Assembly: GCA_035546615.1 (NCBI GenBank)
Contig: DASZWM010000004.1
Coordinates: 1 to 11,143, forward strand
Origin: Minisyncoccota bacterium
Lineage (GTDB): Bacteria; Patescibacteriota; Minisyncoccia; Phycocordibacterales; SBAW01
Direction: 5' to 3'
DNA: 11,143 bases
Part shown: positions 1 to 11,143 of the stretch, one piece after another
Layout: every line of letters begins with the position of its first letter
How positions within the stretch are numbered: position 1 is the stretch's first letter
Program-made: the position numbers and the translations under genes
Notes under the pieces: generated by a model
Seen by the model: only the letters and a program-made list of their open reading frames with translations
Databases searched by the model: none
What the model was told of the DNA's origin: nothing

Positions 1-188
<188 letters not shown>

Positions 189-405
189 CCTTTACAGAGG
201 GAGAGAATCCTTGGGAATCGCAATAATCTGTTGTTCTTTCTTTACCTGGCAGCGCGCTTCGTTGTCGAACTGCGCTTCAAAACGCTCGCCGTACTCAAGT
301 ACGTCTCGCGCCCTGAAGCTTGTTCTCCTAGAATCGCATCTGCCATGAAAAGAAATCTTGTTTTACCTGCGTTTGTGAGTTTCGTTGAGGAGGAGAAAGA
401 AAAAA

Positions 406-730: not shown

Positions 731-847
731 TCTTGGTGGCTCAACGGTGGGGTCACACCCGTTCTCATTCCGAACACGGAAGTTAAGCCTACTAGTGGCG
801 ATGGTAGTCAGGGTCACACCTGGCGAGAGTAGCTAGCCGCCGGGACA
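731..847 (+). rRNA. rrf: 5S rRNA
   Basis: The ~117-nt element contains the 5S loop motifs CCGTTCTCATTCCGAACACGGAAGTTAAGC, GCGATGGTAGT and GGCGAGAGTAG. Terminal helix I is formed by CTTGGTGGC pairing with GCCGCCGGG. Confidence 0.85.
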
Positions 848-3856: not shown

Positions 3857-5212
3857 ATGGCAACCGCCTTTCGCCCCCGGACGCTCGTACTTTTCCTGGG
3901 GGACATACTCTTCTTCGCTTTCGCCCTTTGGCTTTCGCTCTATCTGCGCGCCTTCAGCGTCCCGGACCGCGACCTCTTCCTGTCCCACTTGCAGCCCTTC
4001 CTGCTTCTCTTTGCGGCGTGGGCAATCGTCTTCTTCATAGCGGGACTCTATGAGAGCCGCTCCATAATCCTCGCGCGCCGCGCGCTTTCGATGACGCTCC
4101 TGGTGGCGCAGACGTTCAATATAATCCTCGCGGCGCTCTTCTTTTTTGTCCTGCCGCTTTCTATTTTCGGCATTGCCCCCAAGGTCCTGCTTGCCATTTA
4201 TCTCCCGGTTTCTTTTGCGCTGGTGCTGGTGTGGCGCGTTGCTTTGTATCCCTGGCTTGGCTTCCAGAAGCCCGAGCAGGCGATAGCGGTTGGTTCGCGC
4301 CCGGAAGTGGCCGAGCTGGTGCATGCGCTCGACAATGCGCCGAATGCGCCAACCCGCGTGGCGGTGCATCTGGATCCTGCGAGCCCATCCGTCGTCGAGG
4401 ATATCAAGGTCGCTATTGCGCAATACAGGGCGAAGTTCGTCATCGCCGACTTCAACGACCCGCGCGTGGCTGCCGCATTCCCCGATATGTATAACTTCCT
4501 TTCGGTAGGCATCCGTTTCTTCGACGCGATGATGCTGTACGAGGAGGTGTTCGGCCGCATTCCGCTTTCCATCATCGACGAGCGCTGGCTTGCGCGGAAT
4601 GTCTCGCGCTACTCCAAGACCTGGTACGACCCGCTCAAGCGGTTTATGGATATACTCATCGGAGTGGCGGGAGGGATCATCTCGCTAGTGTTCTATCCTT
4701 TTATCATCCTCGCCATTAAGCTTGATGACGGAGGACCTCTATTTGTCTCTTTGCCGCGTATCGGTCAGGGCGGCAAAGTTATTCATATCCACAAATTTCG
4801 CAGCATGACCGGCAATGACGCGGGCGATTATGGAGCGGGTGGAACTACTAAGCTGGCCGTTACGCAGGTAGGCAAGATTCTTCGAAAAACCAGTCTCGAT
4901 GAGATACCGCAATTTTTAAATGTCCTTTTCGGGGAGCTTTCCCTTATCGGGCCTCGTCCGGAATCGCCTTCGCTCGTGGAGTTGTACGGCAAAGAGATAC
5001 CCTATTATCAAGCCCGTCATTTAATAAAGCCGGGCATTTCCGGATGGGCGCAGATCTATCAAGCCAACGATCCGCACCACGGCGCGGAAGTAGAAGCGAC
5101 GCGCGAGAAGCTTTCGTACGACCTCTACTACCTCAAGCACCGCTCGCTCATGCTGGATCTGGTTATCGCGCTCAAGACGGTAAAGAAACTTCTTATACGT
5201 AGCGGGATATAA
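3857..5212 (+). CDS. Polyprenyl-phosphate sugar phosphotransferase (WbaP/CpsE/WcaJ 'bacterial sugar transferase' family), 451 aa
   Basis: An N-terminal multi-TM region is followed by a C-terminal catalytic domain. That domain carries the family hallmarks KRFMDILIG..., [27 protein letters not shown] and [10 protein letters not shown]. Confidence 0.85.
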
Positions 5213-5220
5213 TCAGTCGC

Positions 5221-5943
5221 ATGATAGTAGATGGGAAAAAAATAGCCGAGGAGATTTTGGCTGATATCGGCGATTCTTTGCGCGGGCGTAAGCTCGGCAT
5301 TGTTATGGGCTCTTCCGACCCTGCGACGGAGTCTTTCATACGTATCAAATCGAAAGTGGCCGCGCGCCTTGGCGTGAAAGTCGTACACGGCGAATTTTCG
5401 AAACTCCTTACATCCTGCGACGGCATTATCGTGCAGCTGCCAATAGCAAACTCCGACGAATTGCTCGCTCAGCTTCCGGCTGACAAAGATGTCGACGCGC
5501 TCGGGCACGCGCCGAGCGTATTGCCCCCCGTGGCCGGAGCCGTTGCCGAAGTGCTCATGCGCCAGGGCGTGGACGTTGTGGGTAAAAAGATCGTCGTAGT
5601 GGGCGCCGGCAGGCTGGTCGGAAGACCGGCAGCTGAAATGCTCAAAGAAATGGGCGGGGAAGTCACAGTCGTTACGACAAACAGCGGCTCGCTTGAAGAA
5701 CTTAAGACTGCCGATGTTGTAGTGCTTGGGGCGGGGGATCCGGGCTTTATAAAGCCGGAGATGCTCAAGCAGGGAGTCGTTCTTATAGATGCAGGCACCA
5801 GCGAGTCGTCCGGCAAGCTCGCGGGCGATGCTGATCCTGCATGCGCTGATATCGCTTCTATATTTACACCTGTCCCAGGCGGTATAGGACCCATCGCCGT
5901 CGCGATGATATTCAAAAATCTGCTTGCCTTAGTGCAGAAGTAG
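5221..5943 (+). CDS. folD: Bifunctional 5,10-methylene-tetrahydrofolate dehydrogenase/cyclohydrolase FolD (compact 240-aa form)
   Basis: MIVDGKKIAEEI matches the FolD N-terminus. The SFIRIKSKV block carries the conserved catalytic Lys. QLP...DKDVDA, the VVGAGRLVGRP Rossmann segment and the C-terminal TPVPGGIGPIAVAMIF are also present. Confidence 0.8.
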   Translation: MIVDGKKIAEEILADIGDSLRGRKLGIVMGSSDPATESFIRIKSKVAARLGVKVVHGEFSKLLTSCDGIIVQLPIANSDELLAQLPADKDVDALGHAPSVLPPVAGAVAEVLMRQGVDVVGKKIVVVGAGRLVGRPAAEMLKEMGGEVTVVTTNSGSLEELKTADVVVLGAGDPGFIKPEMLKQGVVLIDAGTSESSGKLAGDADPACADIASIFTPVPGGIGPIAVAMIFKNLLALVQK

Positions 5944-6026: not shown

Positions 6027-6092
6027 TATAATCTAGCGAAGCGAGCCAAATGAGAGTCCCTTTCATTTGGTCGCGAGCGACGATTATATAAT
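6027..6092 (+). promoter_or_regulatory. secDF upstream region: two consensus TATAAT hexamers (6027-6032 and 6087-6092) flanking a bulged 12-bp hairpin (6041-6074)
   Basis: TATAAT 6087-6092 lies 10 nt before ATG 6103 with no SD between, consistent with a leaderless or short-leader mRNA. TATAAT 6027-6032 would start a transcript roughly at the base of the hairpin: GCGA(G)CCAAATGA, a 9-nt loop, then TCATTTGGTCGC. No convincing -35 for either. Confidence 0.3.
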
Positions 6093-6102
6093 CTTAAATT
6101 CT

Positions 6103-7449
6103 ATGTTTGCTTTGCGCTATAGCGCCGTGGTCATCCTTATTATCGCGGGGGCATTGGGCTACTTCGTGTGGCACACCACCGGCGGGGGCGGCCGGTTCGA
6201 CTTCAAGCTGGGGCTCGACCTCTCCGGGGGTACCCACCTGGTCTACTCTGCCGACACCAGCACTATTGCGGCCGCGGATATTCCTGATGCTCTCATTGCG
6301 CTTCGCGAGGTTGTTGAGCGCCGCGTTAACGCCTTTGGCGTCGGCGAACCGGTCGTCCAGACCGAGCAGGGAGGCGCACTCGGAAGCGGCGAACACCGCC
6401 TGGTGGTGGAGCTCCCTGGCATAACTGATGTCGATGCCGCAGTGAAGATGATAGGCGCCACGCCGCTTCTTGAATTCAAGCTCGTGAAGGACGGATTTGC
6501 GGACAACCTCACGATTACTTCGACTACGTCGCCGGAGCAGACCATACCGAACCCTGCCGCGTTTACCGACACCGGCCTGACGGGCAAGTACCTTTCGCGC
6601 GCAACGCTCGAGTTCAACAAAGGAACCGGCAGCGTGGGGCTGACCCAGCCGGTCGTGCGCGTGGACTTTAACTCCGAGGGCACGAAGCTCTTCGGCGATA
6701 TCACGAGCGCCAATGTCGGCAAGCAGATAGCGATATTCCTCGACGGCACGATGGTGTCGGCGCCTACGGTTCAGGAAAAGATAACCGACGGCACAGCGAT
6801 AATTTCCGGCAACTTCTCCGCCGACTCCGCCAAGGAGCTCGTGCGCAACCTTAACTTGGGCGCCCTTCCGGTACCCATTACGCTTGCAAGTACGCAGTCT
6901 ATCGGCGCTATCCTCGGCGACGAGGCCGTACATGCGGGAATTCTCGCGGGCGTAGTCGGTTTCGTGGCGCTGTCGCTCTTCATGCTCTTCTGGTACCGCG
7001 TGCCGGGATTCGTTGCGGTCGTCTCGCTAACCATTTACGTCATCCTGATGCTGGTGCTCTTTAAGCTCATTCCGGTCGTGCTGACCGCCGCCGGCATCGC
7101 GGGCTTCATACTGTCCGTCGGCCTTGCCGTGGACGCCAACGTGCTTATTGCCGAGCGCATCAAGGAGGAGCTTGCCGCGGGCAAGAAGCTCGACCACGCC
7201 ATCCGCGAGGGCTTCGCGCGCGCCTGGCTCGCCATCCGCGACTCCAACATCGCGCACATCATCGCAGGCGTCATCCTGTTCTGGTTCGGCACGGCGCTCA
7301 TCAAGGGCTTCGCGCTGGTGTTCGGGCTCGGCGTCGTCGTGTCCATGTTCTCGGCTATCACCATCTCCCGCACGTTCCTGCTGGCGCTCGGCATCAATAC
7401 CGACAAGAAACTCGGCCACTTCCTGATGCGCTCCGGCCTTCGCAAGTAA
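6103..7449 (+). CDS. secD: Protein translocase subunit SecD (448 aa)
   Basis: N-terminal TM anchor, then GLDLSGGTHLVY. The large periplasmic domain is followed by a C-terminal 6-TM bundle (...IAERIKEELAAGKKLDHAIREGFARAWLAIRDSNIAHIIAGVILFWFG...). The start was chosen at ATG 6103; an in-frame TTG at 6067 would add 12 aa. Confidence 0.9.
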   Translation: MFALRYSAVVILIIAGALGYFVWHTTGGGGRFDFKLGLDLSGGTHLVYSADTSTIAAADIPDALIALREVVERRVNAFGVGEPVVQTEQGGALGSGEHRLVVELPGITDVDAAVKMIGATPLLEFKLVKDGFADNLTITSTTSPEQTIPNPAAFTDTGLTGKYLSRATLEFNKGTGSVGLTQPVVRVDFNSEGTKLFGDITSANVGKQIAIFLDGTMVSAPTVQEKITDGTAIISGNFSADSAKELVRNLNLGALPVPITLASTQSIGAILGDEAVHAGILAGVVGFVALSLFMLFWYRVPGFVAVVSLTIYVILMLVLFKLIPVVLTAAGIAGFILSVGLAVDANVLIAERIKEELAAGKKLDHAIREGFARAWLAIRDSNIAHIIAGVILFWFGTALIKGFALVFGLGVVVSMFSAITISRTFLLALGINTDKKLGHFLMRSGLRK

Positions 7450-7465
7450 CTTGAGATCTGATTTT

Positions 7466-8365
7466 ATGAACATCGCAAAATACGAAAAATATTTCTTCAT
7501 CCTTCCGGCAGTTCTGTCGCTTCTGGCCGTTATCGCGCTCGGCATGTGGGGGCTCAAGCCCGGCATTGATTTGGCCGGCGGCTCGCTGCTTCAGGTGACC
7601 TACGCGGCAGAGCGCCCTACGAGCGAAGCCGTGCACGCGGCGGTAGACGGCTTGGGCATTGGAGAAGTGCACGTACAGCCTACGGGCACCAATGGCTACA
7701 TCCTCCGCCAGCGCGACTTGACCCAAGACGAGAAGAATACGCTTGAGAACGCGCTCAAGAACCTCGGCGCCAACAAGGAAGACCAGTTCACCTCTATAGG
7801 CCCGTCGCTGGGCTCCGAGCTGGTACGCAAGGCATGGATAGCGATCACGCTTGTGGTGCTGTGCATCATCGCGTTCATCGCGTTCGCGTTCCGCGGCGTC
7901 TCCAAGCCCGTCGCGTCCTGGAAGTACGGCATCGTGGCGATCATTACGCTGCTTCACGACATCCTTATTCCGTTGGGCCTCTTTGCGGCTCTCGGTCACT
8001 TTATGGGGGCGGAGGTGGACGCGCTCTTTATCGTGGCGCTCCTGACCATCTTGGGTATTTCCATCAACGACACTATCGTGGTCTTTGACCGCATCCGCGA
8101 GAACCTGCGCCTTAACGAAGAGCGCCACAAGCGCGAGGCGTTCGACGAGGTCGTGGGCCGCTCTATCATGCAGACCCTAGCGCGCTCCATTAACACTAGC
8201 CTCACCGTCGTCATTACGCTCGCGGCACTGTACTTCCTCGGCCCGGCGTCGACGAAAATGTTCGCACTCACCCTTATCGTCGGTATGATAGCGGGAACCT
8301 ACTCTTCGATATTCCTCGCGTCCCCGCTGTTGGTAGTCTGGGAGCGTTTTCAGAAAAAGGGTTAA
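7466..8365 (+). CDS. secF: Protein translocase subunit SecF (299 aa)
   Basis: Sits immediately downstream of secD. Signature blocks GIDLAGGSLLQV, ...INDTIVVFDRIRENL... and a C-terminal TM bundle. The start was chosen at ATG 7466; a TTG at 7451 is an alternative. Confidence 0.9.
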   Translation: MNIAKYEKYFFILPAVLSLLAVIALGMWGLKPGIDLAGGSLLQVTYAAERPTSEAVHAAVDGLGIGEVHVQPTGTNGYILRQRDLTQDEKNTLENALKNLGANKEDQFTSIGPSLGSELVRKAWIAITLVVLCIIAFIAFAFRGVSKPVASWKYGIVAIITLLHDILIPLGLFAALGHFMGAEVDALFIVALLTILGISINDTIVVFDRIRENLRLNEERHKREAFDEVVGRSIMQTLARSINTSLTVVITLAALYFLGPASTKMFALTLIVGMIAGTYSSIFLASPLLVVWERFQKKG

Positions 8366-8374
8366 TATAAAGGC

Positions 8375-8785
8375 ATGAAGACCGTCCTTATCGCTATCGC
8401 TGTTGTCGTAGTAGGGGGCGCGGCATGGTGGTTCCTGGCCAAGGAAACCGCTTCCGCACCGACGGTTGCTCGCGCGCCCGAAGTCTCTTGGCAGTATGCT
8501 GATAAGGGCGGAGATGAAACCGGCACGCCGCAGACCGAAGTGAGCGTTACGATCTCGGGCAAGACGAGCCTGGTCGGCACCTACCAGGGCAGATGTGCCA
8601 GTGTTTCGACCTTGGCCGATGGGGAAGTCTCAGGCACCTTGTGCTGGTGGGCGGGCGGCGGCAAGGAACTCGGCGTATTTAACGAGAACGGAAAGTGGGT
8701 GGTCAAAGAAGGCGACCAGGACGAGGGAAGCGGCGATGAGCCCGGCTTCCGCGGCAATTTCAAAACGCTTTTTGAGATCAAATAA
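8375..8785 (+). CDS. Hypothetical small protein (136 aa) with an N-terminal signal-anchor TM helix and a Gly/acidic-rich soluble domain holding 2 Cys
   Basis: ORF starting 10 nt after the secF stop, with a weak AAAGG upstream. Its stop overlaps the start of the next gene (TAATG), indicating translational coupling. No family recognised. Confidence 0.55.
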   Translation: MKTVLIAIAVVVVGGAAWWFLAKETASAPTVARAPEVSWQYADKGGDETGTPQTEVSVTISGKTSLVGTYQGRCASVSTLADGEVSGTLCWWAGGGKELGVFNENGKWVVKEGDQDEGSGDEPGFRGNFKTLFEIK

Positions 8786-9333
8786 TGATAATCGGGATTA
8801 CGGGTTCTTTTGGGGCGGGGAAGGGAGTTGTTGTTGACTATCTCAGCAAGACCAGGGGATTTAAGCACTACTCCGCAAGCGGTTTTATAAAAGAAGAGAT
8901 CGTACGTCGCGGTCTGCCTGTGGATCGCGACTCCATGATACTTATTGGTAATGCCATACGTGCGGAATATGGCCCAGCCTACATCATTGAGACGTTATAC
9001 AAGCGCGCAGAAGAAGCTGGCGGAGACGCGGTCATTGAGGCGTTGCGCGCGGTTGCGGAAGCAAAAAAGATCAAAGAGCTTGGTGGACTGGTTATCGGAG
9101 TAGATGCGGATTCCAAATTGCGCTATGAACGCGCTTTCGCGCGCAAAAGCGAAAAAGATAATGTTCCGTATGACAAGTGGCTTGAGCAGGAAAGAATAGA
9201 AAATAATGCCACTGACCCGACGAGGCAGAATATCTCCGGTGCCTTGAAAGAATCCGACGTAATCGTAACCAACAACGGCACGCCGGAGGAGCTTTTTGCC
9301 CAGGTAGAGGAGGCTTTGCAGAAAATCAAATAA
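8785..9333 (+). CDS. P-loop nucleotide/nucleoside kinase, NMP-kinase / dephospho-CoA-kinase-like fold (182 aa)
   Basis: N-terminal Walker A GITGSFGAGKG. An H-Y-S-A-S-G segment resembles the adenylate/cytidylate kinase HxS(T)GD block. RYERAFAR is lid-like. The C-terminal DVIVTNNGTPEELFAQVEE closely resembles the CoaE C-terminus (DDVIDNNG...). The exact substrate cannot be assigned. Confidence 0.6.
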   Translation: MIIGITGSFGAGKGVVVDYLSKTRGFKHYSASGFIKEEIVRRGLPVDRDSMILIGNAIRAEYGPAYIIETLYKRAEEAGGDAVIEALRAVAEAKKIKELGGLVIGVDADSKLRYERAFARKSEKDNVPYDKWLEQERIENNATDPTRQNISGALKESDVIVTNNGTPEELFAQVEEALQKIK

Positions 9334-9930
9334 ATGGACTGGCATCAGGTTACAGCTTTGATAACGGGCGTTTTGACCCTTGCTGCGGTGGTGCCATACG
9401 TGCGCGATATGCTTCGCGGAACGACGCGGCCCAACCTGGTTACCTGGGGGCTTTGGCTTATTATCCAGACTATTTTTATTTTGGCGCAGTTTAGCGCCGG
9501 CGCCTCGTGGTCGGTACTGCTGCCGCTTATGGAAATGCTCACGGTCGGAATCGTGTTCGTCCTCGGCTTGTTCGGCTATGGGTATAAAAAGTATCGCAAG
9601 CTCGATATTACATGCCTTGGCATCGCGCTTGCGGCCATCGCCCTTTGGCAGCTTACAAGCGAACCACTCGTGGCGCTTTTCATGGCCCTGGGGGCGGACC
9701 TAGTTGCCGGAATCCCTACTCTCAAAAAGGCATATCTCGACCCGATGTCCGAAACGCCGTCAGCTTATTTTCTGGTGTTTATTTCGGCTATTTTCGGAGG
9801 GCTTTCCAGCGCGATTATCGACCTTCCTAACCTCATGTGGCCGGTCTATATCTGCGCTTTCAACGGAGGGGTTTTGGCCCTTATTTTGCTTGGCCGGAGG
9901 GCTCAAAAAGGCCATATTTCCAGGGCTTGA
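9334..9930 (+). CDS. Polytopic membrane protein (198 aa, ~7 TM) with an internal 3+1+3 repeat; PQ-loop / SWEET / Pnu-like topology (hypothetical transporter)
   Basis: ATG lies 1 nt after the kinase stop. Seven hydrophobic segments. The two halves align: AAVVPYVRDMLRGTTRPNLVTWGLWLII with VAGIPTLKKAYLDPMSETPSAYFLVFIS, giving a repeated P-x-x-[RK]-x-x-L-x-x-x-[ST] after the first helix of each repeat. The family assignment is inference. Confidence 0.55.
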   Translation: MDWHQVTALITGVLTLAAVVPYVRDMLRGTTRPNLVTWGLWLIIQTIFILAQFSAGASWSVLLPLMEMLTVGIVFVLGLFGYGYKKYRKLDITCLGIALAAIALWQLTSEPLVALFMALGADLVAGIPTLKKAYLDPMSETPSAYFLVFISAIFGGLSSAIIDLPNLMWPVYICAFNGGVLALILLGRRAQKGHISRA

Positions 9931-9954
9931 CTCCCTAGGGCAGGGGTATATACT
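9927..9954 (+). promoter_or_regulatory. Sigma70-type promoter candidate for the 16S rRNA gene (TTGACT-N16-TATACT)
   Basis: -35 TTGACT 9927-9932 overlaps the TGA stop of the upstream CDS. -10 TATACT is at 9949-9954 with a 16-nt spacer. The predicted start is ~330 nt upstream of the mature 16S 5' end, a normal rRNA leader length. Confidence 0.5.
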
Positions 9955-10051
9955 CTCTATATCACTGCCTTTCGGCGGTTTTTCTTTCGCCTAAACAGCA
10001 ACAAGGAAAGCCCCTCGAGCTATGGGCAGGGGATCCTTGAAAATTGAATAA

Positions 10052-10063: not shown

Positions 10064-10290
10064 GTAATTGAACGTTAGAGGAGGATCACACCGATCTTCT
10101 GCATCTGAGTACAAGGATGCAGGAGGTCAGCAAGCAAAAGAAGTCCTTCCAATATAATTCCACTGGGAGGCAAACAAGGGAGAAGCCCTGTCCTTATTTA
10201 ATTGAAAAATTGAACTGGATAGAAATATTTTTTCTCTTGTTCCGTTCATCGAGTCAAAGGAACGAATGTAAAAGTTCGTCTCTTATAATT

Positions 10291-11143
<853 letters not shown>

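Follow-up and report, generated by a model that had tools for sequence, protein, structure and literature searches.

Kinase and carrier-fold membrane protein genes in a variable slot downstream of secF in Candidatus Paceibacterota

The window analyzed here, a stretch of DNA of 11,143 bp, is a contig from a metagenome-assembled genome of Candidatus Paceibacterota. Near its end, three open reading frames (ORFs) follow each other in a row on the plus strand, as seen in the ORF listing and in the raw sequence (Table 1). They encode a small membrane-anchored protein, a P-loop phosphotransferase (referred to as the kinase), and a membrane protein with seven transmembrane helices (7-TM protein). On balance, these are probably three functionally separate genes in the tail of an operon, the second of which encodes a kinase resembling UPF0200 proteins and deoxynucleoside monophosphate (dNMP) kinases, and the third an unnamed carrier with a PQ-loop/SWEET fold.

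The three genes and their products

All three ORFs are real genes, because each of them has homologues with matching N-termini and lengths; a word-indexed search retrieved 7 homologues of the small protein, 891 of the kinase, and 225 of the 7-TM protein. In a first-pass annotation of the window, the trio had been described as a three-gene module with overlapping or abutting reading frames. The ORFs and both junctions, a TAATG overlap and a TAA directly followed by ATG, were confirmed in the raw sequence, but the module is not free-standing. It closes a longer housekeeping string, in which the genes for a sugar transferase, FolD, SecD, SecF, the small protein, the kinase, and the 7-TM protein are co-directional. 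The gaps in this string amount to 8 nt between the sugar transferase gene and folD, at most 123 nt between folD and secD, 1 nt between secD and secF, and 9 nt between secF and the small ORF. Judging from this gene arrangement, the trio is probably co-transcribed, and its translation would be coupled. Short gaps between genes are usual in this genome, and since functionally unrelated genes of the string are packed equally tight, spacing alone is uninformative about shared function here.

The small protein has an N-terminal anchor at residues 3-21 (mean Kyte-Doolittle hydropathy 2.3), and the remaining 111 residues comprise 18 Gly, 16 Asp plus Glu, and 2 Cys, in agreement with the earlier description of a secreted product rich in glycine and acidic residues. 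No match was found in Pfam, NCBIfam, PHROG, or PADLOC, and the 7 homologues are the only ones among 5.8 billion proteins. One of these copies, 83% identical, is encoded at the same position in locus L044, the closest relative with the same trio and the same style of junctions. Another homologue with 42% identity is encoded between tatD and rpsF, and neither the kinase gene nor the 7-TM gene is linked to that copy. The small gene is a lineage-specific insertion encoding an anchored extracytoplasmic protein.

The kinase is an enzyme with the P-loop nucleoside monophosphate (NMP) kinase fold. Pfam detects only the generic families AAA_17/AAA_18. Over its full length, the kinase matches PRK08356 of NCBIfam (2.7e-16) with 59.9 bits, which is below the equivalog cutoff of 189, and it is thus a relative but not an equivalog of this family. 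Full-length matches were also obtained with PHROG_139, annotated as deoxynucleoside monophosphate kinase (3.5e-17), and with SSO1041, a UPF0200 protein from archaea (1.3e-5 for the single sequence, 8.8e-10 for the family profile), to which the similarity extends over the full length in both sequence and structure. The Pfam family DNMK (PF21448) scored 15.3 against a cutoff of 27.1 and covered only the C-terminal 18 residues. Models of adenylate kinase and UMP/CMP kinase remained far below their cutoffs. There was no profile match to the deoxynucleoside kinase (dNK) family PF01712 or to AAA_28 and the ribosylnicotinamide kinase (RNK) of NadR, so that the protein is not a nucleoside or vitamin kinase of the types considered in the first-pass annotation.

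The P-loop GSFGAGKG is invariant in 40 orthologues and is of the adenylate kinase style with GKG instead of GKS or GKT. Further residues that are invariant in these orthologues are H28, S30, S32, R48, D49, R59, E85, R88, R113, R120, K124, and D125. The motif H28-Y-S30-A-S32-G follows the P-loop and presumably resembles the NMP-binding motif of adenylate kinases. Relatives of the kinase act on or bind nucleoside monophosphates, namely SSO1041 with AMP, the phage dNMP kinases, and the kinase domain of a dCTP deaminase. The kinase is predicted to be an active NMP-kinase-like phosphotransferase, most likely a (d)NMP kinase, and would use ATP to phosphorylate a (deoxy)nucleoside monophosphate. Literature searches returned nothing relevant on UPF0200/SSO1041 or dNMP kinases in Patescibacteria.

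An interpretation of the trio as a defence system was rejected. The match to the dCTPase model of PADLOC comprises the full length of the window kinase but only the kinase domain of the model (positions 155-330 of 630, 2.4e-10), and the NCBIfam model of the anti-phage dCTP deaminase is matched at positions 108-207 of 437 only. The window kinase with its 182 amino acids (aa) has no deaminase part, and the other two proteins match nothing.

The 7-TM protein has no match in Pfam, NCBIfam, PHROGs, PADLOC, or the sequences of the PDB, either as a single sequence or as a profile of 50 homologues. The NMN_transporter family (PF04973) was not matched by the window protein at E<=0.1 or by the 50 members at E<=1, and the families PQ-loop (PF04193) and MtN3_slv (PF03083) are absent both for the window protein and from the 25 Pfam families that are matched by most of the 50 members at E<=1. 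A confident AlphaFold model of the protein, with a predicted local distance difference test score (pLDDT) of 90.9 and a predicted template-modelling score (pTM) of 0.86, contains seven helices, which form two triple-helix bundles connected by a linker helix (3+1+3). When this model was searched with Foldseek, the KDEL receptor was found with a template-modelling score (TM-score) of 0.60 and cystinosin with 0.47; PnuC (4QTN) was found at rank 12 with a TM-score of 0.33 and an E value of 0.92. All 13 Lys and Arg residues are located at the end of TM1 and in loop 1, in loop 3 and at the start of TM4, at the end of TM5, and at the C-terminus, and none in the N-terminus or in loops 2, 4, and 6. Because every Lys and Arg is on one side, the positive-inside rule predicts an N-out/C-in orientation. 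In this topology, two conserved motifs, PYVRDxLxGTTRPN after TM1 and PTxxKxYxDPxSET after TM5, would be cytoplasmic. Within these motifs, P21 is conserved in at least 90% and P128 is invariant, and the residue following the proline is Tyr or Thr, not Gln. Acidic residues are conserved at D91, D122, and E140. An alignment of the N-terminal with the C-terminal half by hhalign was in register, with PYVRD aligned to PTLK, and was not significant (E 0.31, probability 0.2%).

According to the model, the 7-TM protein belongs, in full-length 3+1+3 form, to the PQ-loop/SWEET fold class, which only its structure reveals, and it is probably a small-solute carrier, in which case it may rock about the two conserved proline hinges. 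The earlier description of a transporter-like 3+1+3 protein is supported by AlphaFold and Foldseek, since the protein falls into a superfamily that had been listed there and not into a non-transporter fold. The relation to PnuC that had been put forward is borne out neither by the TM-score nor by the NMN_transporter profile. An exhaustive HMMER search for the family yielded 5,570 cluster representatives (50% identity) at E<=1e-3 and 3,700 at E<=1e-10. Members are found in many lineages of Patescibacteria, in Gaiella (Actinomycetota), and on replicons of Burkholderia, Paraburkholderia, and Rhizobium, and all are annotated as hypothetical proteins. Some homologues (P0275, P0316, P0377, P0386, P0390) are extended at the C-terminus by a fused domain; this is a glyoxalase/VOC domain in two cases and a bacterial SH3 domain in the other three.

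Table 1. Features of the window with positions, strand, and basis of the assignment
Feature	Position	Strand	Basis
Small membrane-anchored protein, 136 aa	8375..8785	+	ORF, composition, hydropathy
TAATG stop/start overlap, small ORF to kinase gene	8783..8787	+	read from sequence; TAA 8783-8785, ATG 8785-8787
Cytoplasmic P-loop phosphotransferase, 182 aa, UPF0200/SSO1041 (AdkA-like) and phage dNMP-kinase lineage	8785..9333	+	profile and structure matches
Kinase core, mosaic relative to L044 (paralogue replacement)	8831..9250	+	DNA identity 47-65%
Abutting TAA and ATG, kinase gene to 7-TM gene	9331..9336	+	read from sequence; TAA 9331-9333, ATG 9334-9336
7-TM (3+1+3) membrane protein, 198 aa, N-out/C-in, PQ-loop/SWEET/KDEL-receptor fold	9334..9930	+	AlphaFold model, Foldseek
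secD-secF, conserved upstream frame of variable slot	6067..8365	+	Pfam
16S rRNA gene, 5' part, unlinked; conserved downstream frame of slot	10284..11143	+	Rfam
Promoter-like site	9927-9954	+	consensus scan, pattern match only
Terminator-like hairpin and T-run closing the gene string	9964..9989	+	consensus scan, pattern match only
Sugar transferase (Bac_transf)	3857-5212	+	Pfam
FolD	5221-5943	+	Pfam
SecD	6067-7449	+	Pfam
SecF	7451-8365	+	Pfam
23S rRNA gene, 3' end	1-191		Rfam
5S rRNA gene	732-845		Rfam

Variable gene content downstream of secF and upstream of the 16S rRNA gene

In the 110 loci that were collected around homologues, a conserved frame can be recognized that consists of FolD-SecD-SecF upstream and a stand-alone 16S rRNA gene with a tRNA gene downstream, while the content in between varies. 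The order FolD-SecD-SecF-kinase is found in L001, L007-L010, L019, L021, and L041-L043, and SecD-SecF-kinase, with FolD absent or past the end of the contig, in L048, L050, L051, L054, and L061; the sequences of L039/L040 end within secF. A stand-alone 16S rRNA gene followed by a tRNA gene and not by a 23S rRNA gene was present downstream of the block in 8/8 loci checked (L001, L003, L007, L039, L042, L043, L044, L048).

Between these borders, L003 contains the 7-TM gene and no kinase gene, and L039/L040 contain a kinase gene followed by a saccharopine-dehydrogenase-family gene (SacDH) and no 7-TM gene, in each case before the 16S rRNA gene. In L041-L043, secF is followed by one or two kinase genes and then by a convergent archaeal-type pyrH; the full order in L042 is secF, two kinase genes, pyrH on the minus strand, a gene for a 376-aa protein of no family, and the 16S rRNA gene. 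A kinase gene, SacDH on the minus strand, and the 7-TM gene follow secF in L001, L050, L051, and L054, and in L001 these are followed by the 16S rRNA gene. The order in L008/L048 is secF, kinase, SacDH, kinase, 7-TM, whereas L019, L021, and L061 have two kinase genes and then the 7-TM gene. The small protein gene followed by the kinase and 7-TM genes is the arrangement in the window and in L044. SacDH itself occurs in two forms. The form with 491-496 aa is encoded on the plus strand (L039:1290-2765, L008:3884-5374) and is matched by no NCBIfam family; the form with 384 aa is encoded on the minus strand (L001:3812-4966), where it diverges from the 7-TM gene at a distance of about 35 nt, and has a weak match to carboxynorspermidine synthase.

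The adjacency of secF and the kinase gene is a conserved feature without an obvious functional rationale. The kinase paralogues fall into at least eleven groups at 55% identity, and their P-loops vary between GAGKG and GAGKT. Two paralogues follow secF either in tandem (L019, L021, L042, L061) or one gene apart (L008/L048). The window kinase with its P-loop GSFGAGKG belongs to group 5, which includes hundreds of orthologues with 60-84% identity. In the other 4 sampled loci with a group 5 kinase (L039, L041, L042, L043), the kinase gene also follows secF, and there is no 7-TM gene within the 3-10.5 kb available per locus. In related genomes, the kinases whose genes neighbour the 7-TM gene share only 31-54% identity with the window kinase.

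A replacement of the kinase can be followed by comparison with L044. At the DNA level, the two loci are 77-97% identical in secF, in the small ORF, in the 7-TM gene, and in the spacer downstream, and the same holds for the first ~45 and the last ~80 nt of the kinase gene. The diverged core of this gene corresponds to positions ~6455-6880 of L044, and the slot kinase of L044 belongs to group 7 and shares 46% aa identity with the group 5 kinase of the window. A diverged core from another paralogue group between well-conserved flanks argues that the slot kinase was replaced by recombination while its neighbours stayed.

When non-redundant 7-TM loci were counted whose upstream flank spans at least 700 nt, 12/58 had a kinase gene of the same family within two genes upstream, and about 80% had none. 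Wherever the flank is long enough, these pairs lie in the SecDF block, and a hidden Markov model of the kinase family detected no same-family kinase near 7-TM loci outside this block. The trio as such is not conserved across relatives: the kinase goes with secF, and the 7-TM gene mostly occurs without a kinase.

These data fit a slot with fast turnover better than a co-adapted pair. The adjacency of kinase and 7-TM gene would then be the current occupancy of this slot and not a dedicated system for uptake and phosphorylation, and differing mixes of kinase paralogues, SacDH, pyrH, the 7-TM gene, or a small gene would occupy it in different genomes. The gene string would end at a hairpin before the unlinked 16S rRNA gene. 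This terminator-like hairpin is located just downstream of the best sigma-70-like match of the region (TTGACT, 16 nt, TATACT; 10/12), and the two signals conflict. The promoter-like site and the stop codon of the 7-TM gene overlap. With the 16S rRNA gene about 330 nt further downstream, this site is possibly the promoter of that gene.

The rRNA genes of the window are unlinked in the order 23S-5S and 16S, with ten protein genes between 5S and 16S. Directly after the 5S rRNA gene and 9 nt before ftsW/rodA, an ORF at 916-1668 encodes a 250-aa protein with an N-terminal hydrophobic segment and no Pfam family. In L043, the match to the 16S rRNA gene is in two pieces about 800 nt apart (L043:6545-8935), which suggests an insertion within this gene. 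Insertions in 16S rRNA genes have been reported for bacteria of the candidate phyla radiation.

Alternative explanations of the gene arrangement

Several observations weigh against the interpretation as three functionally separate genes. The overlapping and the abutting junction are both kept in L044, and both trio junctions of the window have the 9-mer ATCAAATAA in common. It is present in exactly 2 copies in the window (8777-8785 and 9325-9333), each of which ends in the stop codon of the junction; the expected number is 0.06, and two matches were obtained in 0/200 shuffles. In L044, ATCAAATAA is kept at the second junction only, and the repeat may provide a context for re-initiation or may have arisen by chance from two C-termini that end in IK before the stop codon. 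Furthermore, a same-family kinase is kept directly upstream of the 7-TM gene across a clade with 43-73% identical 7-TM proteins, despite the change of paralogues, and the pairing could thus itself be selected. Small P-loop kinases of other families are also encoded near 7-TM homologues. In L073, the gene for an AAA_18 kinase with a GKST loop lies 8 nt upstream (-1), and in L091/L090 a gene of the same AAA_18 family lies two genes downstream (+2). A shikimate-kinase-family protein is encoded 4 nt downstream in L047 (+1), followed by pyrF and a phosphoribosyltransferase gene, and in L028 (+1) the gene 6 nt downstream encodes a bona fide dTMP kinase. In a positional scan of 32 lineages, small ORFs with an N-terminal Walker-A motif were found near the 7-TM gene (-1, 5/28; -2, 4/28; -3, 2/26; +1, 1/30; +2, 1/24), but in 0/116 lineage-positions at +/-4 to 6. 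The Walker-A signal is marginal, however, because four lineages share one SecDF block and two other kinases are housekeeping enzymes.

The first-pass annotation had seen in the trio a candidate salvage module that echoes Pnu-type transporters with their cognate kinases. Under such a model, a precursor, for instance a nucleoside or a vitamin, would enter the cell through the 7-TM protein and be trapped there by phosphorylation through the kinase, and the small protein would be an accessory. This explanation is quite unlikely, and the idea is only weakly alive. It draws on the co-directional genes with overlapping junctions in an arrangement kept in L044, on a carrier-type fold that is related to PnuC at the superfamily level, on the 12 non-redundant loci with a same-family kinase, and on the P-loop kinases of three other families together with the positional enrichment of Walker-A ORFs. 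Paceibacterota are metabolically reduced, which makes scavenging plausible. The family of the kinase speaks against salvage, since its relatives are NMP kinases and an NMP kinase does not trap an imported nucleoside; PnuC is also a poor structural match. In addition, orthologues of the window kinase occur without a 7-TM neighbour, most 7-TM loci are without a kinase, and the slot kinase has given way to another paralogue in the sister genome. The same-family adjacencies all lie in one inherited SecDF block and therefore count as roughly one evolutionary event; once this clade is collapsed, the enrichment amounts to an estimated ~4-5 events versus 1 and is marginal. The other adjoining kinases include housekeeping enzymes (Tmk, AroK-like) with unrelated substrates. 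It is highly improbable that the kinase is instead the dephospho-CoA kinase CoaE of this lineage beside unrelated genes, even though many of its homologues are named dephospho-CoA kinase by the Joint Genome Institute and its N-terminal P-loop is similar to that of CoaE. PF01121 reaches 15.4 bits against a cutoff of 27 over residues 1-22 only, and TIGR00152 reaches 19.1 against 65.55 over residues 2-38 only. The P-loop is of the GKG type and followed by HxSxG, and up to two tandem paralogues per genome would be unusual for CoaE. The NMP-kinase part of the earlier assignment to NMP/CoaE-like kinases stands, and the CoaE part is dropped. Conservation of the trio, which the first-pass annotation had named as a check, gives no support to the Pnu-type module.

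Independently of the neighbouring kinase, the 7-TM protein has been considered as a carrier of a cationic amine or amino acid of polyamine or S-adenosylmethionine (SAM) metabolism, such as agmatine, putrescine, arginine/lysine, or a SAM-related cation, similar to the PQ-loop carriers PQLC2/Ypq and cystinosin. This is unlikely. The best structural match is cystinosin, a PQ-loop amino-acid carrier, and the conserved acidic residues would suit such a cargo. In one lineage (L031, L034-L037), an agmatinase gene (TIGR01230, above cutoff) lies beside the 7-TM gene, with metK next to it in L031 and L037, and in L027 the slot between the 7-TM gene and metK is filled by genes for the non-homologous agmatine deiminase and N-carbamoylputrescine amidase. 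SAM decarboxylase adjoins the 7-TM gene in L005/L006, and in L045, from a 2-Mb genome, AdoMet_dc, the 7-TM gene, and a methyltransferase gene follow each other with overlapping junctions. SacDH adjoins the 7-TM gene in the clade of the window (L001, L008, L010, L048-L054, L089); its family includes carboxy(nor)spermidine dehydrogenase, to which the copy in L001 has a weak match (9.3e-12). The polyamine and SAM neighbours and the cystinosin-like fold suggest a cationic amine or amino-acid substrate. These associations amount to 3-4 independent events among ~32 lineages, with ~1 expected by chance according to a rough estimate, and the function of SacDH is unproven. Polyamine genes are absent from the window, from the 77 neighbours of metagenome loci (0 found), and from four contexts in Burkholderia, Paraburkholderia, and Rhizobium. 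The agmatinase-linked homologues are 29-38% identical to the window protein, and their substrate may differ. The signal from the polyamine/SAM context is as weak as that from the kinase context. An adenosyl compound (SAM/MTA) was considered as a substrate that would unite the two signals, and this idea was not adopted. Both contexts could be joined if the 198-aa protein belonged to a large, unnamed, full-length prokaryotic PQ-loop/SWEET branch, present in Patescibacteria, Actinomycetota, and Pseudomonadota, of importers that feed the enzymes encoded beside them. These would be the agmatine-to-putrescine and SAM enzymes in some lineages and small P-loop kinases in others, so that in the window the 7-TM protein would be the uptake half and the kinase the second half of a true scavenging route. 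This joint explanation is very unlikely.

With respect to the neighbourhood of the 7-TM family as a whole, a Pfam census of 154 neighbouring ORFs revealed mostly unrelated housekeeping functions (EF-G, DnaJ, HhH-GPD, HAD, NUDIX). On proteobacterial replicons, the neighbours are an SRPBCC protein, AraC, TetR with an FAD protein, and a Gfo/Idh/MocA oxidoreductase, without a common theme. In a literature search, nothing relevant was found that links PQ-loop proteins with agmatine or polyamines. The slot between the 7-TM gene and metK is filled by either of two non-homologous pathways that lead from agmatine to putrescine (L027:1449-4525 versus L031:2721-5174 and L037). The cluster in L045 (L045:3777-6451, probably Actinomycetota) begins with a methyltransferase gene and a 48-aa ORF, followed by genes for an AdoMet_dc-like protein of 82 aa, the 7-TM homologue, and a TRM5/PrmA-like methyltransferase. 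From the 48-aa ORF onward, the genes are joined by overlapping start and stop codons, and the cluster looks like an operon around SAM or decarboxylated SAM.

What is of interest here is chiefly the carrier family, which is large and unannotated, and the mosaic nature of the kinase slot. The 7-TM family, with thousands of members, a carrier fold, and no annotation beyond hypothetical protein, deserves a name. For the kinase family, the names AAA family ATPase and dephospho-CoA kinase are common in annotations of Paceibacterota, and UPF0200/dNMP-kinase-like would describe it better. The locus shows that tight packing is an unreliable guide to function in Paceibacterota genomes and that gene content turns over fast between secF and the 16S rRNA gene. 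If the salvage explanation were true, it would hint at how these ultra-small bacteria obtain a nutrient they cannot make.

Comparison with known systems

The closest likeness to a known transporter-kinase system is that to PnuC with NadR, in which the gene for a small 7-TM carrier, with a fold of the same broad class, lies beside a P-loop kinase gene, and the logic of metabolic trapping would suit a reduced genome. The trio differs from this system in the weak structural match and the missing match of the window protein to NMN_transporter, in a kinase of the NMP-kinase type instead of a ribosylnicotinamide, thiamine, or deoxynucleoside kinase, and in a gene pairing that is not conserved beyond one syntenic block.

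Among characterized structures, the kinase resembles SSO1041 (PDB 3H0K/3LW7), which is described as an adenylate kinase related, AdkA-like protein and was solved with AMP; the function of the UPF0200 family is uncharacterized. Whereas the P-loop of SSO1041 is GSGKS, the family of the window kinase has GAGKG. The phage dNMP kinases (PHROG_139; Dnk of phage T4, PDB 1DEK) share about 26% identity with the window kinase. Unlike these and the anti-phage dCTP deaminase, the window kinase is encoded in a chromosomal housekeeping context.

The 7-TM protein is best compared with the PQ-loop/SWEET superfamily, which includes cystinosin, PQLC2/Ypq, SWEETs, and SemiSWEET dimers. Its conserved motifs are predicted to be cytoplasmic, as are the PQ loops of these proteins, and contain P-Y and P-T instead of P-Q. 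Bacterial relatives described so far are mostly SemiSWEETs with three transmembrane helices and a few forms with six or seven (PMC5742349). In contrast to these mostly 3-TM proteins, the 7-TM family is both prokaryotic and full length.

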